A DNA stretch of 35,917 bases from a virus (Duplodnaviria > Caudoviricetes). Location: IMG/VR virus record IMGVR_UViG_3300044637_000453, positions 1 through 35,917 of that record; one strand, 5' to 3'. Below the pieces are notes generated by a model. The model worked only from the letters and a program-made list of their open reading frames with translations, did no database searches and had not been told where the DNA came from. How positions within the stretch are numbered: position 1 is the first letter of the stretch; each line of letters begins with the position of its first letter. The translations under genes were made by a program, and so were the position numbers. Below are positions 7,867-34,922 of this stretch, piece by piece.

Positions 7867-8205
7867 TTATATTAATTTACACTTCTTTTCTTTAAAGATG
7901 TTTTGTTTAATATCATAGATAATCATATTTAAATTATGATATTTTTGATAAAATAAATCAACATTAGAAAAATCAAAGCTTTCAGGATGACTATGAAAAT
8001 AGTATAAAATTGTGTAATTATTTTTTATTTGCAAGTAATCTTTAGGAGAAACTAAAACGTGATTTTGTTTTTCTGGGTGTTTATTATCGACTGGAATGAA
8101 TTTAATTACCGAGTCTTTTTCTACAATAAACCCACAAACCTCTTCATTAGCATTTTTATTAGAATAAGATCGCAATTCATCATGTATTTCAGGTTTTAGA
8201 TTCAT
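7867..8205 (-). CDS. JAB/MPN (JAMM) metalloprotease domain protein, gpK-like, without NlpC/P60 domain
   Basis: EEVCGFI and HSHP-x4-FS-x2-D JAMM motif. Start moved to ATG 8205 (MNLKPE), which limits the overlap with L. Confidence 0.85.
   Translation of the reverse strand: MNLKPEIHDELRSYSNKNANEEVCGFIVEKDSVIKFIPVDNKHPEKQNHVLVSPKDYLQIKNNYTILYYFHSHPESFDFSNVDLFYQKYHNLNMIIYDIKQNIFKEKKCKLI
7877..7882 (-). promoter_or_regulatory. GTGTAA motif before the gpI-like gene
   Basis: GTGTAA-N13-ATG. Confidence 0.5.
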
Positions 8206-9235
8206 TGTTGTATGGGAATGTAGCTGGAAAGGCCCCAAATGGTAAATACGGCTTATCCTTAGTTAAATTAACATTATCATTAAATCTTAATCTACATCCT
8301 CTTAAAGTACGCGAGCATTTATCTTGTTTCCAAACGTCAGTATTTTGTGAAGGATATTTATTTACATTATTAATTATGCAAACAAAATAATTTTTTGGTT
8401 TGTTTAAAGAAACTATTTCCGATTCATCGTTTTCTAAATTAGCGTTAGAAACAGCATCTACATAAATAAAATCTCCAACCACATAAGAAGTGGTAGCCAA
8501 CCATTCATTTTTATATGTTAAGCTCGTTAAATTATAACTGCCATTATAAGGTAAATCATATAAATCTCCTGAATTAGTGCTATTCGCTTTTTTAACAAAA
8601 ACTTTATCATTTTCATCAGCAACTGGCGCTCCTAAATAACCGTTGAAACCACCCGCTATTGTTACTGGTAATTTAGGCCCTGAATAATCTCTATTGTTTC
8701 CATAATTACATCCATAACATCTATAATTCCACGAACACGTATCATTAGTAATTTTTCTTGCAGGAATAGATAATGATTCAACATCGACTTTTGTTGTTAA
8801 TTCCAACTCTACTAAATTTAAATTTTCTGCAATCTTTGCGTTTACCACAAACCTATCAAACGCTATATAAGTATTAAAACTAGATATTCCATATGGATTA
8901 ATGTTATTTTCAAAATTACTAACGTCTAAATCTTTAGCTAATATTTTTTTTCTATTAAAATTTTTACCTATAAGATCGTTTCTGTCTTGCAACACTTTAG
9001 AAAAATAATTATTTATATTACCGATTTGCAATTTAGGTCTACTTTGCCTACCGTCCGAGGAGGTTTCATAAGAAGAAAACTCACAAGGTATAAAAATATA
9101 TTCTTTATTTTGGAAAAATAAATTTTTGTTAAAATTCTTAGACCCATGAAATCTTAAATACCCTTCGTTAGATTCCAATTCTATTTCAAATAAATCTAAT
9201 ATTACATAATTATTAAGTTTAAATAAAGTGTTCAT
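8189..9235 (-). CDS. Minor tail protein, lambda gpL-like
   Basis: LDLFEI, SDGRQSRPKLQIGN, IPARKI, cysteine set CSWNYRCYGC...KCSRTLRGCRLRF, LPFGAFP. Confidence 0.92.
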   Translation of the reverse strand: MNTLFKLNNYVILDLFEIELESNEGYLRFHGSKNFNKNLFFQNKEYIFIPCEFSSYETSSDGRQSRPKLQIGNINNYFSKVLQDRNDLIGKNFNRKKILAKDLDVSNFENNINPYGISSFNTYIAFDRFVVNAKIAENLNLVELELTTKVDVESLSIPARKITNDTCSWNYRCYGCNYGNNRDYSGPKLPVTIAGGFNGYLGAPVADENDKVFVKKANSTNSGDLYDLPYNGSYNLTSLTYKNEWLATTSYVVGDFIYVDAVSNANLENDESEIVSLNKPKNYFVCIINNVNKYPSQNTDVWKQDKCSRTLRGCRLRFNDNVNLTKDKPYLPFGAFPATFPYNNESKT

Positions 9236-17374: not shown

Positions 17375-20300
17375 TTATGCTTTTCTTGTACCAGCTAATG
17401 AACCGCCAAATCTTTGTTGTTCACGAATAACATCAAGAACTGCTCCATATATTTTAGTATTAAGATTATTTGATAATTCAACATCTTGCTGTTTATATGT
17501 TGAACTATCTGCTCCCATTTGTATAGCACCGTCTCTATTAACTGAAGTATTAAAATTAAATGAATTACTAGCATTACTATTATTAACAGTATTAGAATTA
17601 TTAGCTACAGCAGATGTTCCCCCGCCTTGCATTCCTACATCATACTGTTTAACCATTGGGCTATTATATAATCCACCTTCCATATAACCAGGAATTGTAT
17701 CTGATAAACGAGAACCTATTGAACCACCAGTCTGACGACCCATAGGTTTTGTAACTAAAGCTCTATTTGGCCCAAATGATGGTCCTGATAAAAATGAATT
17801 AAATCCTGATTGTATATTAGTTGGACCTTTATACTCAAAATTATTTCCTAATAATCCAGATTTTTGAAATTTAGCTAAAGACCCAAGCTCTGAATTTGTC
17901 ATTCCAGCGCCTCCAGTTGCATTTAGTTTGGCGGATAAAGTTTGAGCTTTACCGGCTTGGATATTTCCCATTTTATTAGATATTCCAGCGCCTATTCCAA
18001 TTGTTGCTATAGAAGCTACAATAGATCCAACCATTTGGGCTGTTTGAGCTTGTCTTGCGCGTTTCTTTTGTCTGGCTTGTTCAGCCTTTTGTATTTCAGC
18101 GTCACGTAATTCTTTGTATAATGAACTATTTTCAAGACCAAAAGTAGTCATACCATCTTCCATTGACTTTATATCACTCAATTCCGCATTGAACGCTCCA
18201 CCACTAGCGAAACGAGGCGCAGCAGAGAAATTCAAAGTATCAAGAGCGGCAGGACCACCCATTGCCATTACCGCTCTTCTATTTAATACATATTCACCAT
18301 TCTCAAGCATGGCTGGATATTTATCTCCAGAACCAGTTCCAGAAACATACATGCCAGATTGTGCGCGTACAACACCTCCTTTTTGAGCCGTAAATAGACT
18401 TTCAATTCCTGATCCACTTATCAATTTTGAAACACCAACCTCCATTAATCTATTACTAATAGTATCTAAGAAATTAGCAGCAACACCTAAAAGAGCATCA
18501 CCAAGATTATCAGTTTCTTTTACTGCCGCTTTTATAGCATTTACCATTCCATCTCTAAAAAGCATAGGCGTATCTTTTGCCAATCTATTTAATCCAGTAT
18601 CAGCATCTTCTTGTATTTGATCGAAACCTTCTTTGAATCCCATCCTTATCGATTGTCTATCTTTAGCTTCTTGTCTAACTTTACTATTCAAAATGTCTTG
18701 TATTGAACGCATTTTATCTAATTCATCAACATTAGAATTTAATATGCTATTAATTTCTTTTTCTGTATCTGCTAATGTTTTGGCGGCTTCACCTTGCAAA
18801 CCATATTGATTTCTAATATTCGATAATTCTGAAACAAAAGCTTTAGCTTGATCAACATTAGTTACCTTGCTTGTATCAAGATTTGCTATAGCTGTTCTAG
18901 CTTTTTCCGCTCTATCTGTTTGTTCTTTATTTAAAGGTCCATAAGATCCTTCTTGAAGCAAAGGATTTATACTTTCTGCTTTTATTTTACTTCTATAGGT
19001 TTCAAATTGACTCAACTGTTGTTGAACGTTTTGAGTTGCTTGTGCATTTTGACGGCGCTGTCTTAATGCTAAATTTTGTTCATCAAAGCCTATTTGTTTT
19101 TCAGCTTTTCCTGTGACTCCTAATCCAAAGAAATTTGCTGGTCTAGATTTTGCAGCCTCTAATCTTTGCTCTTCAATTTCAATTGTATTTAAAATTCCTC
19201 TTTGAGCTTTTTCAATTTGCAATAAAGTATTAAGGCGATATATATATGCATTATTTATTCTATCGTTTACGTCAGCAATTTTGATATCAGCTTGAGAATT
19301 TGATTCAAAAATTTTAGATTCTTTATCAAGACCAATTAATGTTTGAGATATAATCCCCATTTGTTCTTGCAAAGGTTTATATAAAACTGAAGTTTGATCG
19401 ATATTTGAAAAGATATATTCTAAATTTTTTCTAAAACTCTCTAATGAAGCTGGATCATTTATTTTATCAAGCATATCATCTAAATTAAATAAATCTGTCA
19501 TATCAGATATATTTACTTTATCAACACCTAAATTTTTATATAAATTAGGTTGTTCTGATATAGATACTTTTTCAATTTCTTGAAATGCAGTTTTTATTGG
19601 GGTTAATATAGGAAAAAGTGTACTTTTAAGTTGCGATTTTACGTTTCCTAAAGTATCCGCCCTTGTTAAAGACTGTCTTTCCATCATCAATCCTCTATTT
19701 TGCATTATAGTTTCTCTATTTATTCGGCCTTCAGATACTCCAAATCCAAAACCAGGCGTTTTTCTAGTATTTTGTAAATCATTCTCTCTTATATCAATGT
19801 TTGCTTTTTGACCAGCAATAGAAATTGCTCGTTTTGTATCGCTTTCTATTAATTTATTTTGTAAGATTAATAATCTTTCTGTACTTTCTGCTTTTCTTTT
19901 AGCAACATCGTTCTCAAGAGCGCTTAAAGAAAGATTTTCTTTTTTAGTTTGAATTAATAACATCAAAGAATCTCGCTCTTTTTTTAATTCAGCGTTTAAT
20001 GATTTTACCTCGTTTGGATCGACATTTTTATATCCCGCTGCGCTTGTAGCTTCTACAGAATTTGTATTTTTAATTAATTCATTTATTTGGCTTAATTGTT
20101 GTTCTGGAGATGAAGTTTTAAAACTTTCAATTAATTTTTCAAGTTTTCCAAGCGTACCAGCATCAGATCCACCTAATGTTTTAGGTAATTTTGAACCAAT
20201 ATTTTGTTCAAAATCAGAGGTGAATTTCATTCTAGATGCTTCTGTTTTAGTTTGAGTTTCTCTATTTCTAGAAGATATTTCTCTTGAAGCTTTTTCTAAA

Positions 20301-23300
20301 GGAGTTGAAATAGAATCTAAATAATTATTAGCGGCATTTTCCAATATCTTAAACCTACTTGATTCAAATTCCATGTTTTGAAGTTGAGAAGCGATGTTAA
20401 ATACATAATTAGAAATAGAGTCTTCTATTCTTTTTATGATTGGTCGCGCATTAAATTGTTGTTTTTCAAGCTGTTGAGCGGCGCTTTTATATTTATCATT
20501 TGTAGCGTCAAAAAACCTCTTCACTAAAACCCCGCTATTAGCTACAAAAAAATCTCCTTCGACTCCCATTTCATCTATTACATTATCAGATAAATCCGCT
20601 AACTCTTTAGCAATCGTTTCTGATATATTATATTTTTTAGCTATCGCCGCTAAATCAGATTCGGATGTATAACCTTGCATTTCTTTTTGAAACTCTTCCA
20701 TAAATGCAGAAGAATTTTCGGCAGTTAATCCGCCCTTTTTGAGTAAATCAAAAAAACCTTGAAATTGCACGAAAGATGTCTGCAAACTTGCTTCTGTTTC
20801 TTTTATATCACCAGAGCCTTGCTGAATATTATATCCTTTTTTTGCTAATTGATTTGATCGGACTGGTATTGTAAAAGATAATTTATCACCACTTTCTTTA
20901 TAAGAAGTTTTTAAATTATTTATTGATTTTACCATATTTGCAGTACTAGTAAAATCTTCAATAGCTTTACCCATCTTATCTATATCACCACCTGCTTCCA
21001 TAAATTTTCTTCCTAATTCAGGAGACTCTTTTGATAAATTTTGAAAAGTTTCTGATAGTTTAAAAGAAGCTTGATTTAATAAAGATGGATCTGATATAGA
21101 ACTAATTTCTTTTAATTGCTGGATGTAGGAACCACTTGAACTAATAATATTATCAACTTGTGCTTTATAAAATTCTGAAGACTTCTGCAAGTCTTCTAAC
21201 GAATCTTGAGAGTCATAAGCGGCTTTGCCTAAACCAATTAAAGCTCCAATTGCTGCTCCAGCAGCAGTTCCTAACCCTGGAATCATCGATCCAATTTCAG
21301 CACCAGTTGTTGTAGCAGTTAAAACTCCACTAGATGCGCTCGATGCAAATTTTTCAGCAGTACTTAACTGAGATCTATCTCTGCCTCCTTGAATAAGATT
21401 TTCTAACTGACCACCAATTAAAGCTCCACCCACTACACCAGCAATTCCACCTAATTTTGAACTTGCAAATTTATCTGCTTTTGCTCCTTTTGCGCCAAAA
21501 AACTTTTCAGATAAAGATTTAGAAGTAGATGTATTTGCAGTAGTTTGATTAGCGGCGTTTCTTTCTGCATCAGCATGAGCTTTAACTTGTTTTAACAACT
21601 CATTAAAAGATGCTGCCTGTAAATTATAACTTTTTAATATTTTTTGTACTGCTGAGTTTATTTGAACGTTATTGGTTTTTAATAAATCTATACTTTTTAT
21701 ATAATTATTAATAGCAGTATCAATTGAATTTCTACTTGTTACTCTTCCAGATCTCTCTCTAATTGCTGTTCCAGAAGAACTAAAATCAGCAAAGTTAGGA
21801 ATATATCCTTTACTCATCAATCCAGCATTCTTCTGTCCTCTCATTGAATCACTCAACGCATTACTTAAACCACCATGATCAGATATTGCGGAACTGAATG
21901 TTGGCTGACTCTTGTTTCTAATGTGTGGGAAAGGCTTAGTATCGAATACGGCTTTTTCTCCGCTCATGCTTTCTTCTAAGCCCATTACTGCTTGTTTATA
22001 CGCAAAGTTGGGAATAAAACCTTTTGCAGCATTCATTGCCAAGAACTCAGGATCTTTTACATAATTATTTAATAAACTATTTGTTTCTGCGGACAATGCT
22101 TTTACAAGATCAGGGCTATTCTTCAATATTTGAGAATAACTTGTTGCAGCTAATTCAAGAAAGTTTTTACCAAACTCAGATGGCAATTGATTTTCATGGC
22201 CAGTTTCATTGAAAACCATGACACCTTCTTTTATTTTAGCCGCTTGTTCAGGATCAGTTTGAGCAACTCTCTTTAATTTATCATTCATGTGTTTAGCAAC
22301 CGAGCCACCTGATAAATTTTTTTTCGGAAAACCTTTAAAATCAAGACCGATAATTCCATCATCTTGTAAAAGAGCGTCATCAAATGCAGTTTGACTAGAT
22401 TTTGCTCTAGGTTGCAATACACTGCCTCTAACAAATTCACCAAATATATTGGATTTATTTATTAATTGTAATGCTTTTCTACTAAAAGTTTCATATAATG
22501 GACCGAAAATATTAGGATCACCATTTTCATCTGCACCTTTAGCAGTGCTTCTAAAACCAATTTGTCTAAATGTATCTACATCACTAGCTTTAGATATTCC
22601 TAAAGTAGGTTGGATTTTATCAAAAGCAGCATTACCAAATTTCTTAAACCAAGGAATTCTTATTGCACTTGTAGGAGGAGCAAAATTAGGAATAAAACCT
22701 CCAGACTTATAGTCCAAAGCTAATTTTTCAGCAGTTTCTTTTTTATTTGAACCTTTAGCTACATACGTCTTTTCAAGAGGAACTTTAGTGCGATCTAAGA
22801 AAAGATTTGAAGATATTATGTCTTTATCGCTTATGCCACTAAGTCGTCCCGCAATCGATTTATTTTTTGCAATTAAATTTCTTTTATTTGTTTTGTGTAC
22901 AACGTTCTTATCAAGCCCACCTGCTGTTTGAGGTAAAATCACAGACCCGCCTTCTACTGTAGGCTTGACATACCAATTGCCTGATCTAGTACTCTTAATA
23001 GTAGCGTTATTAGACCTTATTATTTTAGAAATATAGCTGTCTAAATTAATAGGCTTTTCTGATAATTTAGCGTCTCCCCAAAAAGTCTTATTATTTAAGC
23101 CTAGTTTTTCCTTTACTTGTGGATCTTTAAACTCAAACGGATTATAATCTAATATATCGTTGTCTTCTAAGTACGCTTGTTTTAAGCCAATAGCAATCGC
23201 TATTGTATTATCAAAAACTTTTCCAGCATCCATCTTTGCTAAATAATTTGAAGCAAAATTAGGCACAAATCCACTATTCATATACGGATCAACACCCGTT

Positions 23301-25150
23301 CTACTTATAGCGTTTTGTCTATGTGCGCGGCCAGCTTTTGATCCAGCAGGAGGATTAATAAAAGGTTGAGCAAAACCGGGGACGTATTTAACATCTTCCG
23401 CAGTATTCATTACTCCACCAACAGGAGATTTCACTACTTTACCGGGAGCATAACCACCAGCTTGTGCGCCAACTGTTTCAGCCATTCTTGTTGCAGCAGG
23501 AATATAACCTCCTGCGCGAGTGACCTGCAAACCACCAGATCCTTTTACTCGCACACCTTGACCGGCTAATTGAGTGGCTAATTGTTTTGCAAGAGTTGAT
23601 TGTATTTGATATTCTGCTGTCTGTTGTCTGGCTAATTGAAGCAGCAACTGAGCTTGTGCAGCTTGATTGCCCATAGAGCCAGCAAGAGCTTGCGATACCG
23701 GCCCTTGTTGCTGCATGATTTGCAAAATAGATTGTTCAATATTTTTTCTATTTTGAGTTTCTGTCGTGATACCAGCGATCTGAGGCAAAGCTTGAGCAAG
23801 ATAAGTGAAAGAGTTTTGTATTAACTTAAAAAGCGTAAAGAAAGCAGCGATAGCGCCGGGACCAGCTATTATATTACGAATACCTTTTAATAAACCATTA
23901 GCGAAAGTAGAACCAACTCCTTCTCCTTCAAGAATTTCGTTCATGCTTTCGACAAGTGATTTCAATTGTTCTGTACCATATCTAGCCAATGGTTCAAATG
24001 TTACTTTACCAATATTATTTGCTAGTTGTTGTGTAGAAGTGGCAGTTTGCTTTAATAAAGCGTCAAGAGTTTGATTTAGTTTGGCGGTAGCGATTTCAGC
24101 TTCATTTGTTGCTGATGCGCCTCTTTGTAAAGCTCCAGCATACACGCCTTGAGATTTATTTAAATCACCAACAATAGCTTTAAGAATGTTAACTTGATAA
24201 ACACCAGCGACTTGTTCAGATAACTGCGCTCTTTGAGCGTCTCCTAAGTTTTTATAAGCACCTGCGAAATTTTGTAGAATAGAGACTGCTGGTAAAGTAT
24301 TTCCTTGTACATCTCTTACAGCTATATTGAAAGCTTCTAATTGGTCAAGAGTATCAGTACGTTGTAAGCGAGTAAAAATTGTTTTTAATGCGTTACCAAT
24401 AACCGCGCCGCCTCTTGCTGTACTTTGTTGAGCGGATGTAACTAATGCGTTTAACTGATCAAAACTAACTCCTGCTTCTTGCGCCGCTTGACCTGTACGA
24501 GACAATGCTTCAGCCAAGTCTCCTGCGCCAACTGCGAAATCCTGTTCGACAGCTACAAGTTTATTTAATATTTGAGTTGTTGTTATTCCAGTTGCAGAAA
24601 AACCGTTTATAGTAGAAGTTAAAGCGTCAACAGAATTTGCAGTGCTAATTCCAGCGACTCTTGCTAAAGTTAATGCGTCTTTTGTTCTTATTAAAACTTC
24701 TTCAGCTTTTAAACCTTGACGAGAGAATTCAAGAGCAGCTTTAGACGCGTCATCAAATGTAGAAGCCGTTTGTTTACCAACGCTAAATAAATCTGTACTA
24801 AATTTTTGTAATTGACCAGTAGTTAATCCGAATACACGATTAATATCAGCAAGATTCTTTTCGACATCAATAGTAACATTAGCTAGTTCTTTAAAACTAC
24901 GAATAACACCACCAAGAACAGCGGTTGAAGCTCCGAAGGCGATAACGCGAGCATTAGAAGCGGCAAGAGCCGCCTCAAAATCCTTAACATCACCAGTCAT
25001 TCTTCCGAGCGGCTGAGAGAAAGCTCGTTGATTAACGCTTAAATTAACCTGATTGTTCTGAGCGAATTTTTGATTGTACGCTTGAACACCAGCTTGAATA
25101 GAAGCTGTTAATGCTGCTTGATTGGCGGCGACATTGATTTGAACGGCCAT
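17375..25150 (-). CDS. Tail tape measure protein (TP901-like N-terminal domain) with internal cargo domains
   Basis: 2591 aa, Ala/Gln/Leu-rich and helical; N-terminal LAEALSRTG...GGAVIGNALKTIFTRL; C-terminal GTGSGDKYPAMLENGEYVLNRRAV and FASGG motifs; lies upstream of the tail tip genes. Confidence 0.93.
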   Translation of the reverse strand: MAVQINVAANQAALTASIQAGVQAYNQKFAQNNQVNLSVNQRAFSQPLGRMTGDVKDFEAALAASNARVIAFGASTAVLGGVIRSFKELANVTIDVEKNLADINRVFGLTTGQLQKFSTDLFSVGKQTASTFDDASKAALEFSRQGLKAEEVLIRTKDALTLARVAGISTANSVDALTSTINGFSATGITTTQILNKLVAVEQDFAVGAGDLAEALSRTGQAAQEAGVSFDQLNALVTSAQQSTARGGAVIGNALKTIFTRLQRTDTLDQLEAFNIAVRDVQGNTLPAVSILQNFAGAYKNLGDAQRAQLSEQVAGVYQVNILKAIVGDLNKSQGVYAGALQRGASATNEAEIATAKLNQTLDALLKQTATSTQQLANNIGKVTFEPLARYGTEQLKSLVESMNEILEGEGVGSTFANGLLKGIRNIIAGPGAIAAFFTLFKLIQNSFTYLAQALPQIAGITTETQNRKNIEQSILQIMQQQGPVSQALAGSMGNQAAQAQLLLQLARQQTAEYQIQSTLAKQLATQLAGQGVRVKGSGGLQVTRAGGYIPAATRMAETVGAQAGGYAPGKVVKSPVGGVMNTAEDVKYVPGFAQPFINPPAGSKAGRAHRQNAISRTGVDPYMNSGFVPNFASNYLAKMDAGKVFDNTIAIAIGLKQAYLEDNDILDYNPFEFKDPQVKEKLGLNNKTFWGDAKLSEKPINLDSYISKIIRSNNATIKSTRSGNWYVKPTVEGGSVILPQTAGGLDKNVVHKTNKRNLIAKNKSIAGRLSGISDKDIISSNLFLDRTKVPLEKTYVAKGSNKKETAEKLALDYKSGGFIPNFAPPTSAIRIPWFKKFGNAAFDKIQPTLGISKASDVDTFRQIGFRSTAKGADENGDPNIFGPLYETFSRKALQLINKSNIFGEFVRGSVLQPRAKSSQTAFDDALLQDDGIIGLDFKGFPKKNLSGGSVAKHMNDKLKRVAQTDPEQAAKIKEGVMVFNETGHENQLPSEFGKNFLELAATSYSQILKNSPDLVKALSAETNSLLNNYVKDPEFLAMNAAKGFIPNFAYKQAVMGLEESMSGEKAVFDTKPFPHIRNKSQPTFSSAISDHGGLSNALSDSMRGQKNAGLMSKGYIPNFADFSSSGTAIRERSGRVTSRNSIDTAINNYIKSIDLLKTNNVQINSAVQKILKSYNLQAASFNELLKQVKAHADAERNAANQTTANTSTSKSLSEKFFGAKGAKADKFASSKLGGIAGVVGGALIGGQLENLIQGGRDRSQLSTAEKFASSASSGVLTATTTGAEIGSMIPGLGTAAGAAIGALIGLGKAAYDSQDSLEDLQKSSEFYKAQVDNIISSSGSYIQQLKEISSISDPSLLNQASFKLSETFQNLSKESPELGRKFMEAGGDIDKMGKAIEDFTSTANMVKSINNLKTSYKESGDKLSFTIPVRSNQLAKKGYNIQQGSGDIKETEASLQTSFVQFQGFFDLLKKGGLTAENSSAFMEEFQKEMQGYTSESDLAAIAKKYNISETIAKELADLSDNVIDEMGVEGDFFVANSGVLVKRFFDATNDKYKSAAQQLEKQQFNARPIIKRIEDSISNYVFNIASQLQNMEFESSRFKILENAANNYLDSISTPLEKASREISSRNRETQTKTEASRMKFTSDFEQNIGSKLPKTLGGSDAGTLGKLEKLIESFKTSSPEQQLSQINELIKNTNSVEATSAAGYKNVDPNEVKSLNAELKKERDSLMLLIQTKKENLSLSALENDVAKRKAESTERLLILQNKLIESDTKRAISIAGQKANIDIRENDLQNTRKTPGFGFGVSEGRINRETIMQNRGLMMERQSLTRADTLGNVKSQLKSTLFPILTPIKTAFQEIEKVSISEQPNLYKNLGVDKVNISDMTDLFNLDDMLDKINDPASLESFRKNLEYIFSNIDQTSVLYKPLQEQMGIISQTLIGLDKESKIFESNSQADIKIADVNDRINNAYIYRLNTLLQIEKAQRGILNTIEIEEQRLEAAKSRPANFFGLGVTGKAEKQIGFDEQNLALRQRRQNAQATQNVQQQLSQFETYRSKIKAESINPLLQEGSYGPLNKEQTDRAEKARTAIANLDTSKVTNVDQAKAFVSELSNIRNQYGLQGEAAKTLADTEKEINSILNSNVDELDKMRSIQDILNSKVRQEAKDRQSIRMGFKEGFDQIQEDADTGLNRLAKDTPMLFRDGMVNAIKAAVKETDNLGDALLGVAANFLDTISNRLMEVGVSKLISGSGIESLFTAQKGGVVRAQSGMYVSGTGSGDKYPAMLENGEYVLNRRAVMAMGGPAALDTLNFSAAPRFASGGAFNAELSDIKSMEDGMTTFGLENSSLYKELRDAEIQKAEQARQKKRARQAQTAQMVGSIVASIATIGIGAGISNKMGNIQAGKAQTLSAKLNATGGAGMTNSELGSLAKFQKSGLLGNNFEYKGPTNIQSGFNSFLSGPSFGPNRALVTKPMGRQTGGSIGSRLSDTIPGYMEGGLYNSPMVKQYDVGMQGGGTSAVANNSNTVNNSNASNSFNFNTSVNRDGAIQMGADSSTYKQQDVELSNNLNTKIYGAVLDVIREQQRFGGSLAGTRKA
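21788..23272 (-). repeat. Four dispersed G(F/Y)(I/V)PNFA peptide repeats within the TMP
   Basis: GFVPNFA 23252-23272, GFIPNFA 22679-22699, GFIPNFA 22001-22021, GYIPNFA 21788-21808; degenerate GYIPAA at 23492-23509. Confidence 0.92.
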
Positions 25151-25178: not shown

Positions 25179-26174
25179 TTAACCGAATATTTTCATCATA
25201 TCGTCCATACTCAATGAGCCGCCTTTCTTTTTGGCTTCGTCTGCTAAAGATAAAGTCTTTTGACCTTTAGCCTTTAATCCTATATATTCAAGATCTTCTG
25301 ATGTTGCGCCAACTATTGAAGTCGCTTGGTTTTCTTTATTATTTCTGTTTTCAATTGTCTTTTTAGCGTTTTCATTAGCATTGACATAATCGATAATTTT
25401 ATCAGGATCATCTTTAATATCTTGAGGCATTTTATCATTTTGCTGAAAAACATTCTTAAAAAATCGAGCATAAATAAGTAATTTTACTTGATTATAAGTA
25501 AGCTCGCACACACATTTACCAAAGAATTCAGTAGGATTTTCGGCAAAAGGCATATACAAATTGAAAAAATCTTGTAAAATTAGATGTTGAATTGTGTTGT
25601 CATTTATGTTTTTGTATACCTCTGAGTATTGTTTTATAATACAAGTAAGAGTTTCAGAATCGATATTATCAAACTCATCTTCTTCGAAAGCTTCTTGACT
25701 TAACTTTTTATCTTTATACAAACATTTCAATATATAATAATCATTAACTCTTTCTTCGGCATAACTTTCGGCGGTTCTTTGAAAGAATGCTGCTCTTGTA
25801 TTTTTTAAATCGTTTAAACGTTTTTGCGCCGATTCAATATCATTATTAACTCTTGTTATTTCTGATTTTAGATATAACGCTTTCTTTTGTTTATTGAAGT
25901 TTTCTATTAAATTTTGTTCTTGTGTTATTAAAGATTCTTGTTTATTTGACCATTGTTTTTCGTCAACCAACCGTTCTAAAGTTTCATTATTCGTAGGAAC
26001 GCCGCGTTTTTTAGCTTGATCAAAATAGACATCATAAATTTGATCAATATCGACTTGATCTTCCAAAGACAAATGCTTTAAATAAAAAAGATTCTCTAAA
26101 ACTTTAATCTCAGAGAATCCATTTTTTATATCCCTAAAAGCTTTTTTGTATTTACTCTGTTGGGACTGTTCCAT
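25179..26174 (-). CDS. Putative tail assembly chaperone (pre-TMP protein)
   Basis: Charged helical 331-aa ORF immediately upstream of the TMP; own ATG preceded by GGAG. Function inferred from position only. Confidence 0.5.
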   Translation of the reverse strand: MEQSQQSKYKKAFRDIKNGFSEIKVLENLFYLKHLSLEDQVDIDQIYDVYFDQAKKRGVPTNNETLERLVDEKQWSNKQESLITQEQNLIENFNKQKKALYLKSEITRVNNDIESAQKRLNDLKNTRAAFFQRTAESYAEERVNDYYILKCLYKDKKLSQEAFEEDEFDNIDSETLTCIIKQYSEVYKNINDNTIQHLILQDFFNLYMPFAENPTEFFGKCVCELTYNQVKLLIYARFFKNVFQQNDKMPQDIKDDPDKIIDYVNANENAKKTIENRNNKENQATSIVGATSEDLEYIGLKAKGQKTLSLADEAKKKGGSLSMDDMMKIFG

Positions 26175-26931
26175 CTATTTCTCCAATGATTCTATCGAAT
26201 TCTTCTTTTTCTGTATTGCTGGTAAAGAACCAGTAACTAATAACACTAGCTAGTTTACTATAGCATTTTTCATAAATTTCATTCTTATTCTCTTCGTAAT
26301 CAAACATGACAGATTCTTTAATTTCAAATGTCTTGCCGGGAAATAGCCATTCATATTCAGGACTCTTTTTACTATTATCCTTGAATTGAGTTAGACTTAG
26401 TACATACCAAAGAATAGCTCTATTTTGAGCTTTAATGTCGGCAGTATGATTAAACAAAGTCATATAACTCGTTTCTTTTTCAATAAGAGTCTTACGACGT
26501 TGAAGAATTTCAGAAGTTACTTTTTCAATCTTTAGCTTGTAATCTTCATCGCGTTCCGATTCTGGTTTTAGATTAAGAATAGTTAGTCTACTTTGTAGAT
26601 CTCCAATTTCTCCAGCGGCAGAAACCATTATCTTCGCGTCATTGTCGCTGATCAAACCACCAGTATCACTATACTTATTTAGCAACATCGCCTTTGTTAA
26701 AATTCCATTTCGGATGCATCGGCTCATTTCAATACTGAATTCCATGTCAGCTTCTTGCATTTGTTTTCTATTTGGCTGAAGAATGTGAATTTCTATTGGA
26801 ATTTGTTTCTTAACTTTTTCCTTATAAGTGCGAACGACCTGTTCGCCTTGTTCGTTTGTAACCGTTTCAGTCTTATCCTCTTCGACTTCGGCTGTTTTAA
26901 AAATGTTGAAACTATACAGTGACTTTGACAT
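26152..26931 (-). CDS. Putative tail assembly chaperone
   Basis: Charged helical 259-aa ORF, first gene of the leftward tail unit. Function inferred from position only. Confidence 0.5.
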   Translation of the reverse strand: MSKSLYSFNIFKTAEVEEDKTETVTNEQGEQVVRTYKEKVKKQIPIEIHILQPNRKQMQEADMEFSIEMSRCIRNGILTKAMLLNKYSDTGGLISDNDAKIMVSAAGEIGDLQSRLTILNLKPESERDEDYKLKIEKVTSEILQRRKTLIEKETSYMTLFNHTADIKAQNRAILWYVLSLTQFKDNSKKSPEYEWLFPGKTFEIKESVMFDYEENKNEIYEKCYSKLASVISYWFFTSNTEKEEFDRIIGEIDGTVPTE

Positions 26932-27445: not shown

Positions 27446-28036
27446 ATGGACCCAGATTACAGAAAAATAATGCAAGATTTGCAAGCCGACAAAGAGTATC
27501 AAAAAGAAGTTCATAGAATAGTTGAAAAAGAATTCAATAAAATAAAAAACCAATATTTACAAGAATTTCTTAATCATCCTATCACTCAAGAAATAAAAGG
27601 AGGCATAGACGCAACAAACACATCAGGAACTCTTGCCGGTATAACTAATTTATATTCTTTTATTGGGTTTGATGAAGGATCTGACCCCATAAAACCTATT
27701 GAAGATTTATTAGAGAAGTCTAATTATAGAATTGTTTTTAATAATAAAGCTTTAGATAGTACAATTATTTTTGATATACCTACCGCTGTGCAAATATTTG
27801 AAATAACGCCTATGCCTTGGGCAGTTGGCAGAAGTTGGGCGAGAGGAATAGAAACCGGAATATCGGGTCTTGGATATTATTTAAAAAAAATAAAAAACAG
27901 TCGATCTGGATTCGGTATTCAATCATCAACCAATCAAGTTAGACCGGGAACTGTTTTTAAAAATACAAAATACATATCTGATTTAATAAACAAATTCTCT
28001 AAAGATTTAAAAAGTTTAAATAAAATTACAGCATGA
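27446..28036 (+). CDS. Putative neck / tail completion protein
   Basis: 196-aa ORF (NLYSFIGF, TPMPW..GRSWARGIETGISGLG); position between head-closure-like and terminator-like genes. Confidence 0.45.
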   Translation: MDPDYRKIMQDLQADKEYQKEVHRIVEKEFNKIKNQYLQEFLNHPITQEIKGGIDATNTSGTLAGITNLYSFIGFDEGSDPIKPIEDLLEKSNYRIVFNNKALDSTIIFDIPTAVQIFEITPMPWAVGRSWARGIETGISGLGYYLKKIKNSRSGFGIQSSTNQVRPGTVFKNTKYISDLINKFSKDLKSLNKITA

Positions 28037-28893
28037 AACCGACATTTACTCATAATGTTATTAACAGTTTTTTTCTTTGGTTCGATAATTTCTTAATGAC
28101 CAAAGGTGACGCTTATAAAACTTATACAACAAAACTATATAATTATCAAGATCCTCGACTTGGTGGAGATAAAGTTGTTTACGGATCTCCATATAAACAA
28201 TGGGTATACGATAAAAATATAACTGGCGCAACAATACCATCTGGTTTCACAATTAATAATCAATTTGTATCTACTGGTACAAGCGGTATGAGAATTGATT
28301 TTGATAATGGCAGAATTATTTTTAATAGCGGAGTTTCAACGGGCCTGAACATAACCGGAACTTATTCAGTCAAAGAAGTAAACAGTTATATAACAGATCA
28401 GCCAGAAGATAATTTAATAATTGAAAACAAATTCGTAACAAATAGCAGATTCACAGTATCTGAAAATTATATTACTCCATATAATCCTGTTACTCCTTGT
28501 ATATTCGCTTCTATTGAAACATCTCATAACACTGCATTTGCTTTTGGCGGTGAAGACGAAACAAAATGCATTATTAAAGTCGTAGCGTTTTGTGAAAACT
28601 TATATCAGCTAGACGGAGTTCTTAGCGTATTTGGCGATTCATATAATGAAATATTTAGTATCATACCAATGACAGGTCATCCATTAGGAGAATTCAATGA
28701 AATGAAAACTGGCGCATATCCTACAGGATATGATTATAAAAATTTAAACAACGCATACAATTCTCAAACGCTTTTTATATCCCATGTTGAAACTTCAAAG
28801 ATTCGCGATAGCGTTATTAAAGAATTAAATCCGATTCTTCATATTGGATTTTTAGACTTTGAAATCAAAACTTATCGATACCCTCGATTATAA
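28033..28893 (+). CDS. Putative tail terminator / tail completion protein
   Basis: 286-aa ORF with ATGA overlap, directly upstream of the major tail gene; PCIF...AFGG..ETK..IKVVAF...GFLDFEI pattern. Confidence 0.5.
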   Translation: MKPTFTHNVINSFFLWFDNFLMTKGDAYKTYTTKLYNYQDPRLGGDKVVYGSPYKQWVYDKNITGATIPSGFTINNQFVSTGTSGMRIDFDNGRIIFNSGVSTGLNITGTYSVKEVNSYITDQPEDNLIIENKFVTNSRFTVSENYITPYNPVTPCIFASIETSHNTAFAFGGEDETKCIIKVVAFCENLYQLDGVLSVFGDSYNEIFSIIPMTGHPLGEFNEMKTGAYPTGYDYKNLNNAYNSQTLFISHVETSKIRDSVIKELNPILHIGFLDFEIKTYRYPRL

Positions 28894-28963
28894 TTTCACA
28901 AAAACAACCAATCACTGTAAAAAATATTAACAATTTAACAACAATTAAACAAATAAAAAACAT

Positions 28964-30298
28964 ATGGCAAGAAATCGTGTAATATACCAAAGTCAAGCTT
29001 TATTTATCGCTCCAAGTTCTACTGGAGTACAAGTAAGCGGAGTAGATAGCGCAGGTACTGGATTCACTGCCTCTCCATTTACTCCAACTGATACAGGTTC
29101 ACTAGCATCCGGTATTTCTCTTCTAAAGAAGATGGATCGCATTCAAAATTGTAATTTTAATTTTACAATTAATAGACAAGATATCAATGAATTCGGTAAA
29201 CTAGCTCGTATCGATTCTATTGTTATGGAAGCTCCAACAGTTGGACTTGATTTCAGTTATTATGTAACTGATGGCTATAATGAAAGATTAATGGGCTTTA
29301 ATATTACTGGAGTTACTGATACAAATATCGTTAATGGCGCACAAGCTATTTCTGGATTACTAACTGATCTACAAGGTAATAATTATTACATTTTAACTGT
29401 AGATGAAGGTGAAGACGTTGTTGGCGGAACATTGACCCCAAATTCTACTATAGTAGGAATTGGTAATGGATTCGTTAGCGAATATAGTTTTGAAGCTTCT
29501 GTTGGAGCTATTCCAACAGCAAGCGTAACTGTTGAAGCTTTTAACATCAAATCTGATTCAGCCGAAACCGTCACAACCGTAACAACCGGAAATGCACCCG
29601 CAACATCAGTGGTTGGCGCAAATATAACCTCAATAACTGGAAATAGCGCAGCAATTAATCTTTTTGCTACTCCAGCTACTAAATTTACTTCTATTGGTTC
29701 TGCATATAAACTTGATTATTCAAGAGATTTCACTGGAGCAATTGGTGCTGCCGCTGGTGTTGATTTTACAGGATTCACCACTGGAGTAAGTTCTGTAAGC
29801 GCATTGCGTCCTGGTGATATAGTTCTTTCTCTTGGAAACAGCGTTGGTTTAACAAATCTAGCAGACGCTCATATTCAATCATTTAGTTTTACTCTTCCAT
29901 TGAGCAGAACAATTCTACAAAGACTTGGAAATACATTTGGTTTCGCAAGAGTTGTTAATGTTCCTATTAATATGGATGTAAGTATTAGCGCAATTGTTTC
30001 TGAACTAAAAGATCAAAATCTTTTTGACGCTTTAACAAGTGGAACTCAAACTCTTTCAATTACATTGAAAAATAGCTCATCAGCAAATAAGATTGTTTAT
30101 GAAATCAGAGGCGCACTATTATCTTCTGAAACATATTCTGAAAATCTTGGTGATAATCAAACTGTAGATTTAACATATTCAGTTCAAATCGGCGGCGCAA
30201 ACGACACAACCGCTGGATTGTTTATGTCTGGAAGTTATCAAAACGAATTAGACTCTATTACATCAGGCTTCTTCAAGCTTGGCACTGGCAAGATCTAA
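28964..30298 (+). CDS. Major tail tube protein
   Basis: 444 aa, Thr/Ser/Gly-rich beta protein (MARNRVIYQSQALF, RIQNCNFNFTINRQDINEFG); long A-rich leader and a strong terminator downstream, as expected for an abundant structural protein. Confidence 0.75.
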   Translation: MARNRVIYQSQALFIAPSSTGVQVSGVDSAGTGFTASPFTPTDTGSLASGISLLKKMDRIQNCNFNFTINRQDINEFGKLARIDSIVMEAPTVGLDFSYYVTDGYNERLMGFNITGVTDTNIVNGAQAISGLLTDLQGNNYYILTVDEGEDVVGGTLTPNSTIVGIGNGFVSEYSFEASVGAIPTASVTVEAFNIKSDSAETVTTVTTGNAPATSVVGANITSITGNSAAINLFATPATKFTSIGSAYKLDYSRDFTGAIGAAAGVDFTGFTTGVSSVSALRPGDIVLSLGNSVGLTNLADAHIQSFSFTLPLSRTILQRLGNTFGFARVVNVPINMDVSISAIVSELKDQNLFDALTSGTQTLSITLKNSSSANKIVYEIRGALLSSETYSENLGDNQTVDLTYSVQIGGANDTTAGLFMSGSYQNELDSITSGFFKLGTGKI

Positions 30299-30311
30299 AA
30301 TAGATAACAAT

Positions 30312-30347
30312 AAAAAACCCCAGTCGAAAGACTGGGGTTCTTTTTTT
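30312..30347. terminator. Bidirectional intrinsic terminator
   Basis: AACCCCAGTC-GAAA-GACTGGGGTT perfect stem with GNRA loop, A-tract on the left and T-tract on the right, between convergent genes. Confidence 0.9.
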
Positions 30348-30349
30348 AC

Positions 30350-30862
30350 TTATGGATGACCATATCCATATGGATAATAAAAAAATCCAGATCCTGTAAA
30401 TATCGGCGAACCATCTTCACCAGCCACTTGCACAGGCGCAGCTTGATAAATATTGTAACTAGATACTAATCTTTCCATTTCTTCTCTAGCGTCATTAGCT
30501 AATCCGCGATATGTTTTTGCAAGTTCGTTTTTATTTGTACGCGTAATCATTGTGTCGCCTTCACGCAAAGTCACGAAATCTACAGAGCTATCTACTCCGC
30601 GCAAAACTTGGCGAGTCTTTTTTGTATAAAACTCATACAAGTACATTTGCTTATATATTGCTCTTTCTTCTTGTTGAAAAAACCCTGTTGGTTCAAAATT
30701 AGAATTTTGTACTGAATATTGGCTGTATATTTTTGTATTTAACAAACCAACATTATTAGCAAGCCATCCTGAAATATAATAAAATTGAGCATAGCCGCTA
30801 TCATACTCAAATTCATTCGCGAATATTTCATCAGCTAAATCATGTACACTATAAGCTACCAT
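30350..30862 (-). CDS. Hypothetical virion protein, possible head-tail adaptor
   Basis: 170-aa helical ORF with a LREGDTMITRTN hairpin followed by a helix, as in adaptor proteins; preceded by the GTGTAA motif. Confidence 0.45.
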   Translation of the reverse strand: MVAYSVHDLADEIFANEFEYDSGYAQFYYISGWLANNVGLLNTKIYSQYSVQNSNFEPTGFFQQEERAIYKQMYLYEFYTKKTRQVLRGVDSSVDFVTLREGDTMITRTNKNELAKTYRGLANDAREEMERLVSSYNIYQAAPVQVAGEDGSPIFTGSGFFYYPYGYGHP

Positions 30863-30871
30863 ATATATATC

Positions 30872-30877
30872 TTACAC
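30872..30877 (-). promoter_or_regulatory. GTGTAA motif before 30862
   Basis: GTGTAA-N9-ATG; overlaps the cysC-like stop codon. Confidence 0.55.
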
Positions 30878-31327
30878 TTTTTTATTTAACTTACGAACTA
30901 ATTCGTTGTATATCATTTTAGAATAATAACTGCTATTCTTACTTTGAACTTCAATATCAAACTTTTTGGGCGGCTCAAACACTTTATTAGTATCTTCGTA
31001 TGTTGATTCGTTAATGGTATTCATAAATATTAAAAAATCAGGATCAAATTGATTTCTGGTTTTTTGAAACGGACATACAAAGTCGCAAATGACTATTTCA
31101 TTATACTGACCGTACATGTCGGCCAAATCTTTCATTCTTTTACCTTGACGTTCACGACCAGCTTCACTGAAGTCCCAATCGTTGAATTGTTCACGAACTT
31201 TATCTGCGTTTAACCAATGACATTTATAATGATGGCTCAAAAGATAAGATAAATCTGCCGCTAATGTGGTTTTACCAGATCCCGGCAAGCCCATAATTAA
31301 TACCTTTAAAAACGAACCAATTGGCAT
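30872..31327 (-). CDS. cysC: Adenylyl-sulfate (APS) kinase-like P-loop kinase
   Basis: GLPGSGKTTLA P-loop, LNADKVR..DWDFSEAGRERQ, ICDFVCP..TR, FEPP; shorter than cellular CysC. Confidence 0.75.
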   Translation of the reverse strand: MPIGSFLKVLIMGLPGSGKTTLAADLSYLLSHHYKCHWLNADKVREQFNDWDFSEAGRERQGKRMKDLADMYGQYNEIVICDFVCPFQKTRNQFDPDFLIFMNTINESTYEDTNKVFEPPKKFDIEVQSKNSSYYSKMIYNELVRKLNKKV

Positions 31328-31337
31328 ATTATATGGT

Positions 31338-32162
31338 ATGGTTGAAAAGATATTTTTTCAATGTTCACTACCTCGGGCAGGTTCGACACTTTTACAAAAT
31401 GTGCTGGCGCAAAATCCTGATTTTTATGCAACACCAACTAGTGGATTAATTGAAATCTTCCTTAATGCTAGAAATATTTATTCTACAAATATTGAATTTA
31501 AGGCTCAAGACATTAATGTAGTTGAACCAGCATTCAAAGCTCTTTGTAAAGAAGGTATGTTTGCATATTTTAACGCCATCACTGATAAGAAATATGTTAT
31601 TGACAAAAGCAGAGGCTGGAGCGTTACATACGATTTTCTAAACTGGTATTATCCAGAACCAAAGGTTATTGTTATGGTTCGCGATCTGCGAGCAGTTGTG
31701 GCGAGCATGGAAAAGAAGTGGCGACAATATCAGCACATTGATGCTGGCCTTCAGAACTGGAACGAACTTCGTAACACTACGGTTGATAAGAGAATAGATT
31801 ACTTTTTAATGCAAGCGCCGCCACTTGCTGTAAGTATTGATGTATTGTATGATACCGTTATGCGTAAATTAAGTAAGAAATGTTTATTTATTAAGTTTGA
31901 AAACTTCGCCAGTAATCCTCAAAGAGAAATGGAACGAGTGTACGAGTATCTTGGATTGCCGTTTTATCAACACGACTTTAATAATGTAGAACAAAAGACT
32001 TTTGAAGATGATCGTATGCACATTCCTTTTGGTGACCATACAATTCAAAAAGTAATCAAACCAGTGCCTAACGACTATATAGATATTCTTGGAAAACAGA
32101 ACTGCGATAATATATACAACAAGTTTTCTTGGTTCTATAAAGCTTTTAGTTACGATTATTAA
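31338..32162 (+). CDS. PAPS-dependent sulfotransferase family protein
   Basis: SLPRAGSTLL 5'-PSB loop, IDKSRGW, VRDLRAVVAS 3'-PB motif, IKFENF..NP...MERVYEYLGLP. Start taken at ATG 31338. Confidence 0.88.
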   Translation: MVEKIFFQCSLPRAGSTLLQNVLAQNPDFYATPTSGLIEIFLNARNIYSTNIEFKAQDINVVEPAFKALCKEGMFAYFNAITDKKYVIDKSRGWSVTYDFLNWYYPEPKVIVMVRDLRAVVASMEKKWRQYQHIDAGLQNWNELRNTTVDKRIDYFLMQAPPLAVSIDVLYDTVMRKLSKKCLFIKFENFASNPQREMERVYEYLGLPFYQHDFNNVEQKTFEDDRMHIPFGDHTIQKVIKPVPNDYIDILGKQNCDNIYNKFSWFYKAFSYDY

Positions 32163-32182
32163 TTTCTATAGATAAAAAAATA

Positions 32183-32188
32183 GTGTAA
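32183..32188 (+). promoter_or_regulatory. GTGTAA motif before the 93-aa gene
   Basis: TTCTATAG-N11-GTGTAA-N14-ATG. Confidence 0.6.
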
Positions 32189-32202
32189 AATTAAATACAA
32201 AT

Positions 32203-32484
32203 ATGAGCGACCCAACATTCCCAATTATCAATCTACCAAGTGCTGTAGAAATTCAACAAGCTGCTAATACCAGTCAAATCGAAATCCTTCAAACCACAGA
32301 CGACCCAATCGGTAAGACTGTAAAGAGTTTGGTAAAGATATCAACCACTCCTTACGCTCATAACTGGTATACAGTATGGTCTGGAGATACATATGATCAA
32401 GCTGGTCAATGGACGGACGCCCAATTGTCTGCCGCCATCGTTACTCTAGTAATGGCAGAATATCCTCCCGCTTTGACACGATAA
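32203..32484 (+). CDS. Small hypothetical protein (93 aa), possibly virion-associated
   Basis: Clean ORF with its own GTGTAA motif and a downstream terminator; VWSGDTYDQAGQWTD motif. Confidence 0.7.
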   Translation: MSDPTFPIINLPSAVEIQQAANTSQIEILQTTDDPIGKTVKSLVKISTTPYAHNWYTVWSGDTYDQAGQWTDAQLSAAIVTLVMAEYPPALTR

Positions 32485-32520
32485 TAACTGTAGAAAACAA
32501 TACTAAAAAAACATAAAATA

Positions 32521-32552
32521 CCTCAAGGACATATTGTTCTTGAGGTTTTTTT
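32521..32552 (+). terminator. Intrinsic terminator-like hairpin
   Basis: CCTCAAGGAC-ATATT-GTTCTTGAGG followed by T7. Confidence 0.75.
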
Positions 32553-33317
32553 ATGGCTGAAAAAAAGAAAGTATTAATCGCAACTCCATCTTACGACGGT
32601 AAACTGGATGTTTATTATATCGACTCACTTCTAAACACTTTATCATTAGCTGAAAAGAATAATGTAGAAGTATATCCATTGTTTATTTGTTACGACTCTC
32701 TTATTCAACGTGCGCGAAACGATTTATTTAAACTTGCTTATAGTAACGATATTGATAATTTGTTTTTTATTGATGGTGATGTAGGTTGGAATCCTCAAGA
32801 TTTTTACAAGCTGGTAAAAAGCGACAAAGATATTATCGGTGGATCTTATAGAAAAAAGACTGACAACGAAGAGCTTTACGTTGTGAAAGCTCTTGATAAA
32901 GATAATTCTAAATTAAATTTGAGCGTTGATAAAGACGGCATTCTTGAAGTGGCAGGTTTAGGTTGCGGGTTCATGAAAATTTCTCGCAAAGCTATGAACG
33001 CTTTATGGGAGATTTCCAAACCGTATACCTCAGAAAAAGGTGACACACGAATGGTATTTGAAGTCGTTTGTGAAGACGGCGATCTTATCAGCGAAGATAT
33101 TTATATGTGTAAGAAGTGGCGCAATCTTGGTAATAGCATTTATCTCGATACCAACATCACATGTTCGCACACAGGCGCGAAGACGTTCGTAGGAGACGTT
33201 GGTAAATGGATCAACTCTTTTAAAAATCAAAATACCTTCAATCCACAACCGACAACCGATCTGTCTAAATATTTTGTAAAGAATAATGATGAAGATGATT
33301 TTAAAGTTCTTGTATGA
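32553..33317 (+). CDS. GT-A fold glycosyltransferase (GT2-like)
   Basis: VLIATPSY, SLIQRARN, FFIDGDVGW (DxD), GCGFMKISR, SEDIYMC, CSHTG. Confidence 0.85.
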   Translation: MAEKKKVLIATPSYDGKLDVYYIDSLLNTLSLAEKNNVEVYPLFICYDSLIQRARNDLFKLAYSNDIDNLFFIDGDVGWNPQDFYKLVKSDKDIIGGSYRKKTDNEELYVVKALDKDNSKLNLSVDKDGILEVAGLGCGFMKISRKAMNALWEISKPYTSEKGDTRMVFEVVCEDGDLISEDIYMCKKWRNLGNSIYLDTNITCSHTGAKTFVGDVGKWINSFKNQNTFNPQPTTDLSKYFVKNNDEDDFKVLV

Positions 33318-34276
33318 CGGATATTTACGCAGACATTATTTTATTTGATAGCATAGGTTCTTCATACGATGGAAATACCATGCACAAATGTGGAATGGGC
33401 GGCAGCGAGTTTCAAGCCATTTTACTTCTTGAAGAGTTAGCTAAAGAAGGATATAAAGTTATATGCCTAAACAATTCTAACAAAGAATCTTTTGTAAATG
33501 GAGTGTTGTATGCGCCAAACAAGTTGGTTGATAGTTATAAATTCAAGTGCAAGAATTTAATAATCCACAGGTATAGCGAAATTCCTAAAATCGCTCACAA
33601 AAAAGCATTCATGTGGGCAACCGATTTGAATGGCGTTCATAATCTAAAATTCTATAAACTATTTGAAGAAAAGAAACTAACTTTAATTACCCTCAGTAAT
33701 TTTCATAACGATTTGTTTCCAAAATCTTGGGACAAGCATGTAATTTATTTCATGATACCTGATTGGGTATATGAGTATTCTATACCAGAGAACAAGAAAG
33801 ATTATATATACGCCAGTAGTTTAATGAAAGGATATTCATCCACATTACCATTATGGAAATATCTAAAAAATGAAAAACTACTTAGTAAAACTGATGTATT
33901 GAATGTGTGTTTACCGGGATATGACAATCCGACCCAAGACATAAGCGAAAAAGATTATGGAATTAATTATCTTGGAACTTTGAAGTTTAAAGAAGTTATA
34001 GAACTGATGGCGAAATGTCGCGGCATGTTTTATGTCAACACTATGCCCGAGACTTTTGGCATAAGCGTTGTACTATCCGACATATTAAAGACGACACCGT
34101 TTGTTTATGGTATAAACGGTCTAGGAAGTTTATCTGAATTAATAAATAATAAAAATCTTACTACCGACATGCAAGAATACATTAATATGTTTAAAACTTA
34201 TTCAAGCTTAAATGAAACGCCGCGAAACTTCCGCCCAAAGATGGTTATTAAATGGTGGAAGAAAGTATTGATTTAA
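33314..34276 (+). CDS. GT-B fold glycosyltransferase (GT4-like)
   Basis: GMGGSEFQ N-terminal motif, YASS..KG, PETFGISVV; ATGA overlap with the upstream GT. Confidence 0.8.
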   Translation: MTDIYADIILFDSIGSSYDGNTMHKCGMGGSEFQAILLLEELAKEGYKVICLNNSNKESFVNGVLYAPNKLVDSYKFKCKNLIIHRYSEIPKIAHKKAFMWATDLNGVHNLKFYKLFEEKKLTLITLSNFHNDLFPKSWDKHVIYFMIPDWVYEYSIPENKKDYIYASSLMKGYSSTLPLWKYLKNEKLLSKTDVLNVCLPGYDNPTQDISEKDYGINYLGTLKFKEVIELMAKCRGMFYVNTMPETFGISVVLSDILKTTPFVYGINGLGSLSELINNKNLTTDMQEYINMFKTYSSLNETPRNFRPKMVIKWWKKVLI

Positions 34277-34902
34277 GGTCTAATAAATAATAGACTTTCG
34301 GCAATCAATTCGTTCTTATCGTTCATAACTGTTTCGACTGGCATAATATAATCAAATTTTAGATCAAACATTTTGTTTAATATTTGATCTTTATTGCAGC
34401 CGCCTTCATTATAATTATTAAAAGATACTTCGGTGATAACAACTTTAGCGTTTTTAAAAGTATTTATACCGCCTTCTATAATATCTAATTCACTACCTTG
34501 AGTGTCTATTTTTATAAGATCGTAAATATCTTTCACACAATCATCTAATCTATAAATCGGCAACTCTTCGACTATCAAATTTTGTTCGTTATATGTTTGC
34601 GAGTTTTCTTTGTATATAGAATTGCCAGAACAAATTGCACTCCATTTTGTTTTATAAAATTTAGTTGTACCGTTGATTTTACCAAGCAATTTTATTTGAT
34701 AATCGTAAAGTTGTTTCTGGTATAACTTTTCGCACTCAGCGTTTCCTTCGAATAATAATATGTTTGCGACAGGCCAGATTTGGCGCATAATGTCTGCCGT
34801 TTGGCAGACACTTGCACCGATATCTAATATATTTTTAGGATAAAATCCTTTGTCTCTGAGTAAGAAACAAATTTGAGAATAATAGTCATAAGAATAACCC
34901 AT
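34273..34902 (-). CDS. FkbM family SAM-dependent methyltransferase
   Basis: ILDIGAS, FEGN, RLDD, DLIKIDTQGSELDIIEGG, VITEVS. Confidence 0.88.
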   Translation of the reverse strand: MGYSYDYYSQICFLLRDKGFYPKNILDIGASVCQTADIMRQIWPVANILLFEGNAECEKLYQKQLYDYQIKLLGKINGTTKFYKTKWSAICSGNSIYKENSQTYNEQNLIVEELPIYRLDDCVKDIYDLIKIDTQGSELDIIEGGINTFKNAKVVITEVSFNNYNEGGCNKDQILNKMFDLKFDYIMPVETVMNDKNELIAESLLFIRP

Positions 34903-34922
34903 GACTATTATATAAAAAAAAC

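Follow-up and report, generated by a model that had tools for sequence, protein, structure and literature searches.

Both proteolytic maturation and enzyme fusion have been described for the tape measure proteins (TMPs) of tailed phages. The T5 protein pb2 is cleaved after R1127 (PMC10038345), the C-terminal part of lambda gpH is removed as gpHC at a site and by an enzyme that are both stated to be unknown (PMC12617516), and gp96 of Thermus phage P23-45 is a fusion of a TMP with the virion RNA polymerase (PMC10770324). The subject of the present analysis is the tape measure gene of a 35,917-base virus record (IMG/VR IMGVR_UViG_3300044637_000453), the whole of which is referred to as the window. 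The encoded protein contains a cassette whose exchangeable modules are fenced by the conserved peptide G[FY][IV]PNFA, and we favour, on balance, the reading that two predicted nucleases in this cassette are packed in the tail, cut free at the peptide and ejected as early effectors.

The tail genes have a GC content of about 26-39% and form a lambda-type operon on the minus strand, in which the tape measure gene lies between tail chaperone-like and tail-tip genes and is followed by M-, L-, JAB (gpK-like), gpI- and J-like genes. This position and the PF10145 domain identify it as a siphophage tape measure gene, and its product also has the hydrophobic stretch and a C-terminal module related to the lambda gpHC region (E 6.5e-10 in a two-sequence search). 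The initial annotation had listed four copies of the motif and a degenerate fifth, and their positions, spacers (72, 184, 219 and 64 aa) and differing codons are all as it described. The four codings differ at synonymous positions, so it is the peptide that selection keeps. Chance is excluded as the source of the repeat, since not one copy turned up when the protein was shuffled 20,000 times, and a six-frame search of the window with G[FY][IV]PxF returned just the four copies in the TMP. Over 576 motif copies, G, P, N and F are kept at 92-100%, positions that are partly fixed by the search pattern.

Whole modules are exchanged at the motif. A search with aa 530-1140 found 397 related proteins among 7,981 candidates, and the best 120 were analysed. 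In these relatives aa 1-540 of the TMP has a median identity of 91%, and 119 of them carry two to eight motifs each, delimiting 481 inter-motif segments that fall into 40 clusters and 71 module orders; the cassette ranges from 432 to 1122 aa, and no compensating change in length is seen elsewhere in the protein (r = 0.07, 72 proteins). A query free of cargo (aa 480-633) retrieved 43 IMG/VR loci, one of them incomplete. In all 42 loci compared, the first module is nuclease-type and the second restriction endonuclease (REase)-type, with a HAD-like module between them in three, and zero to three optional modules follow. When DNA identity to the window was scored in 21-nt bins, loci L001 and L006-L011 showed 90-100% upstream of motif 1, 76-90% within it and mostly 14-47% beyond, identity returned to 85-100% at motif 2 in L007, L009 and L014, and past the last motif it fell in all loci except L002-L005. 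Loose contig ends of co-occurring relatives fall at 23252, 22002, 22021, 21785-21789 and 22704-22705 (7 of the 11 loose ends listed); two module-skipping joints in one run, with fewer than 30 letters on one side, were left uncounted. The proposal of swappable modules bounded by the motif is thus borne out by the orders and the DNA breakpoints, the segments being neither invariant nor collinear and the motif lying at their boundaries. The 21-nt motif coding may supply enough identity for crossover. TMP sequence does follow the cassette, as had been noted, but it is not simply the ordinary sequence resuming, since the post-motif sequence is itself replaced in relatives. This channel-forming half (aa 1122-2200; 18400-21787, minus strand) is highly variable, and only 16-32 of the 120 relatives match aa 1122-1230, 1330-1700 or 1700-2200.

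Two of the four inter-motif segments qualify as cargo. Slot 2 has a confidently predicted PD-(D/E)xK-type fold, with the core order helix, three strands, helix and strand and with the E...D...D/E-x-K residues in place, and is under purifying selection (median dN/dS 0.18, 44 pairs); it is predicted to be a PD-(D/E)xK nuclease. Slot 1 is hypervariable, other REase-type or SNase modules taking its place in relatives, and its signature lines up with other nuclease cores, although its own structure model is of low confidence; both slots are predicted restriction-type nucleases. Slot variants include D-x-H instead of D/E-x-K in slot 1 (L013 8152-8676 and cluster C5; 7 of 55 rows) and Q-x-K in slot 2. 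Links of slot 2 to named families are leads only (Tox-REase-7 at 0.83; HincII, E 2.7), without a significant match; PHROG matches on 30 segments are all weak (best E 0.0017), and a search for stand-alone relatives of the nuclease core gave one weak match among 290 candidates, ten longer matches all being family-like. The whole cassette folded as one (aa 540-1125) reached pLDDT 47.8 and no useful match. Globular enzyme cargo, which the initial annotation had expected of every segment, is accordingly upheld for slot 2, is supported in relatives by SNase and GNAT modules whose Pfam matches exceed the cut-off, and is not upheld for the 72-aa and 64-aa segments. Kinase-, HAD- and ART-like modules of relatives sit between the same fences. 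The ART-like call comes from an Atlas lead with low recognition (2048) and an R...S-x-S...E pattern seen by eye, and PDB sequence searches with the ART-like and HAD-like modules gave nothing. Some optional modules (L028 3281-3676, L035 8080-8481, L032 11798-12280) share an H...RG pattern, with clusters C17, C19 and C29 linked and C13 similar by eye.

The two short segments are conserved mini-domains. Residues 540-634 are conserved in 119 relatives and the same 61-65 aa segment terminates the cassette in 114 of 119; this conservation marks the short segments as fences and the long ones as cargo. Compared with each other with their motifs, the two fences align at HHalign P 97.8 and 97.4, a signal lost when the motifs are trimmed (P 0.3), so that homology between them is not demonstrated. 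Neither fence significantly matched the C-terminal module, T5 pb2C or any PDB chain, and a predicted complex of the two (score 0.01) gives no evidence in either direction.

The arrangement is widespread. A strict DNA pattern of the motif matched an estimated 510 or so viral stretches; 52 distinct open reading frames (ORFs) had long flanks, and 47 of them run beyond 1,500 aa, of which 44 match the same TMP N-terminus, with the first motif mostly at aa 530-655. An REase profile found 36 of 94 cargo segments, in 28 of these 44 TMPs, and none of 130 controls. Of 66 motif matches across 14 long records, 65 are grouped at the TMP locus, and the remaining one is antisense in an unrelated gene. One locus, L058, encodes a TMP with a single fence, preceded by APRFA, and no cargo. 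In another (L206 1534-11949, G011) the TMP exceeds 3,400 aa, and motif-fence-motif units recur in it far downstream (aa 1513, 2291-2354 and 3306-3394 of the stretch), and L076 and L057 resemble it.

Table 1. Coordinates of the tape measure gene, its motif copies and modules, and a candidate processing enzyme in the window.
Feature	Position	Strand	Remarks
Tape measure protein gene, 2,591 aa	17375..25150	-	ORF, PF10145 and PHROG tape-measure matches
Conserved N-terminal TMP domain PF10145, aa 123-316	24203..24784	-	E 8e-28
Degenerate motif copy GYIPAAT, aa 548	23489..23509	-	Full copy in many distant relatives
First fence mini-domain, aa 555-626	23273..23488	-	Conserved; [N/H]-x-x-E motif
Motif copy 1, aa 627	23252..23272	-	Exchange point
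Cargo slot 1, aa 634-817	22700..23251	-	PD-(D/E)xK-type signature D647, D668, D693, K695
Motif copy 2, aa 818	22679..22699	-	Exchange point
Cargo slot 2, aa 825-1043	22022..22678	-	Predicted PD-(D/E)xK nuclease core aa 875-993; E887, D924, D937, K939
Motif copy 3, aa 1044	22001..22021	-	Site of 0-4 optional modules in relatives
Last fence mini-domain, aa 1051-1114	21809..22000	-	Conserved; median dN/dS 0.07
Motif copy 4, aa 1115	21788..21808	-	Downstream half exchanged from here
Hydrophobic Gly/Ala-rich stretch, peak aa 1289-1307	21230..21286	-	Candidate membrane segment, downstream of cassette
C-terminal module, aa about 2250-2330, ending PRFASGG	18161..18403	-	Related to lambda gpH 705-812
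Prok-JAB (gpK-like) peptidase gene, tail-tip operon	7867..8238	-	Candidate processing enzyme; score 27.3 vs cut-off 25

In the favoured reading, the cargo would be stored in extended form inside the tail tube, because folded domains of 20-25 kDa should not fit a lumen of 3-4 nm, the tape-fused RNA polymerase of P23-45 being a precedent. The motif would be cut by whichever activity is responsible for TMP maturation. Over a short length, the motif resembles the T5 pb2 cut site F-V-P-R↓A-E-G-G (the arrow marking the cut), and this likeness and the protein's own C-terminal PRFASGG make it plausible that the internal motif is a repeated maturation site. JAB was considered as a general protease for the motif and rejected as not universal: it occurs in 6 of 14 records and in one of five near-complete genomes, and its pattern was not found in eight 20-kb stretches of the other four. 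The freed cargo would then be ejected and reach the cytoplasm, since it lies N-terminal to the hydrophobic stretch, the side on which the P23-45 polymerase is also found (PMC10770324). The first hydrophobic peak after the cassette comes 72-338 aa past the last motif in 92 of 109 relatives, and no relative's cassette has a strong peak inside it. Once inside, the nucleases would attack nucleic acid of the host, of defence systems or of competitors, host targets would be modified by optional modules (GNAT, ART-like, kinase-like, HAD-like), and recombination within the motif coding would reshuffle the load. More tentatively, and with considerable doubt, a large group of aquatic siphophages with genomes of 100-210 kb could be using the TMP as a reloadable magazine, in which a repeated maturation site frees nuclease-first effectors that enter before the genome and the 21-nt coding is a crossover point for trading effectors between neighbours; on this reading the fence mini-domains would be the unit of processing or recognition and would open a way to study TMP cleavage.

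Cognate methyltransferases (PF00145, PF02086 and PF01555, other modification types lying beyond these families) were absent from three of four near-complete cargo-bearing genomes, and a QueC partner was likewise not found there. Without such partners the nucleases do not form a plain restriction-modification system, as far as the families tested in those three genomes show; they may prefer modified, structured or sequence-specific substrates missing from their own genome. The cargo-less L058 (genome G006) encodes four DNA methyltransferases, against none of the tested families in the three cargo-bearing genomes, a single case. A self-splicing intein or Hint element was also rejected, the motif Asn being followed by F/Y in all counted copies (partly by pattern) and Pfam giving no Hint match.

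Other explanations start from the same observations. The motif could be a structural linker or a threading or folding signal in an uncut polyvalent fusion whose modules work while attached to the ejected TMP at the pore, in keeping with the pore-associated polymerase proposed for P23-45 (PMC10770324), the packaging of N4 vRNAP in unprocessed form (PMC5512222) and the failure to find a universal protease gene. A linker, however, needs neither the observed conservation of G, P, N and F, even if this is partly fixed by the pattern, nor confinement to TMPs, and the motif resembles a mapped cut site; we consider this reading unlikely, if a serious contender. The modules could instead be in-frame homing-type endonucleases, a selfish weapon that cuts co-infecting relatives and spreads its own slot, with the motif letting the insert leave the ruler. 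A nuclease-type module always occupies slots 1 and 2, near-identical phages differ widely in slot 1, a cargo-less TMP exists, no partner methyltransferase of the families tested was found and I-Ssp6803I is among the fold matches (rank 46), all as expected of such elements; that GNAT, SNase, kinase-, HAD- and ART-like modules share the fences yet have no homing role, and that the Asn is not followed by an intein nucleophile, makes this decidedly unlikely.

A still less probable reading is that the cargo is excised at tail assembly and acts in the producing cell, in late breakdown of host DNA or in packaging, or is discarded, never entering the next host. Cassette length that is not compensated elsewhere in the protein would agree with this, as would the possible loss of three gpHC copies noted for lambda (PMC12617516), whereas an enzyme acting late would not have to be fused to the ruler, and the N- and C-terminal halves would have to stay joined during measuring. 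That the cassette is an ordinary TMP repeat or neutral spacer is barely credible: nothing but the TMP annotation speaks for it, and the modules are non-homologous and globular, evolve under purifying selection and keep catalytic-type residues.

Elsewhere in the window, two genes directly upstream of the TMP gene (25179-26931, minus strand; 331 and 259 aa) occupy the tail assembly chaperone position and have no family match of note. An island among the virion genes (28033-35525) encodes an APS kinase (30872-31327), a sulfotransferase (31266-32162), an FkbM methyltransferase (34273-34902) and further products, and possibly serves glycan or virion modification. A long ORF (1-3630, minus strand) runs off the contig end; positions 1-900 encode repeats of the Gly-Ser-Ser-Gly-Thr-Ser type, and the ORFs on the plus strand there are shadows. 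A relative (L047 1366-17956, G001) encodes a pair of fibre-like proteins, 2,809 and 2,712 aa long, the second being nearly all a 14-residue Asn/Gly-rich repeat. With a completeness rating of 42%, a 53-kb record identical across the cassette points to a genome near 125 kb; genomes of relatives span 100-210 kb. The 14 sequencing runs that match the window best are from lake water and may be the record's source; the 3-kb cassette stretch lies in a single contig with zero differences in two of four lake metagenome runs examined, which shows continuity of assembly and not independent occurrence. In RNA runs only 6-12% of the window's sequence words are present. No cultured phage matched aa 480-1125 (tblastn, 50,697 phage records), and 185,579 genomes gave one match, L046, a 7.1-kb contig in a metagenome-assembled genome of an uncultured Flavobacterium that carries part of a TMP at 98% identity; as a weak hint from a single, possibly mis-binned contig, it was not accepted as evidence of the host.

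Literature searches (motif spelling, TMP cargo, cleavage), subscription papers and supplements excepted, returned no published description of the motif or cassette. New here are the confident nuclease fold, the nuclease-first slot order, the base-level breakpoints and the negative tests on JAB, methyltransferases and fence homology. If the favoured reading is true, phages have here a widespread means of sending preformed nucleases and modifying enzymes down the tail, under a simple grammar of fence, nuclease, nuclease, optional modules and fence. A candidate TMP cut site is also available in hundreds of natural copies, while that of lambda and its protease are still to be named (PMC12617516). 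Tail length is predicted to vary with cargo size, and the cassettes are a pool of divergent nucleases and host-modifying enzymes missed by family libraries.

Set beside known systems, slot 2 shares core topology and E...D...D/E-x-K residues with the PD-(D/E)xK superfamily (AddA, NucS, Card1/Can2, EcoRV, Hjc, VRR-Nuc), while no named family is matched significantly in sequence. MuF-fused phage toxins, described in part in PMC5512222, are likewise virion proteins with a variable enzymatic domain; theirs is a head protein with a single C-terminal variable domain, whereas in the window the carrier is a tail protein, its multi-slot cassette is internal and no immunity gene was seen next to it. In T5, where pb2 yields pb2* and pb2C (PMC10038345), and in lambda, with gpH* and gpHC (PMC12617516), TMP cleavage frees an enzymatic piece kept in the virion, and the window TMP has a gpHC-like C-terminal module of its own; there, one C-terminal cut releases a periplasmic muralytic piece, in contrast to at least four internal candidate sites and cytoplasm-type enzymes here. 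P23-45 gp96 similarly has a folded enzyme with early activity in the N-terminal part of a long TMP, but it is one fixed enzyme for which no motif fences or exchange are reported (PMC10770324), whereas the window cargo is variable and nuclease-type. Among the closest are the polyvalent proteins (Iyer et al. 2017, PMC5512222), in which unrelated enzyme domains (GNAT, ART, kinase, metallopeptidase) are joined in one mosaic polypeptide predicted to be co-delivered with the DNA and processed. They differ in that the carrier here is a TMP ('tape', and 'REase' and 'SNase' as whole words, do not occur in that paper), its modules are fenced by one peptide and REase-type and SNase nucleases dominate. 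Of the hub domains common, though not obligatory, in that class (MPTase, ArdC-N, MuF), none is in the window cassette, and one HEXXH module was seen by eye in L051. The cassettes do combine at least two biochemically different enzyme domains in a mosaic that changes between relatives, and by this analogy the one described here would work like a polyvalent protein on a tape measure carrier, its co-delivery with the DNA being what TMP biology suggests.
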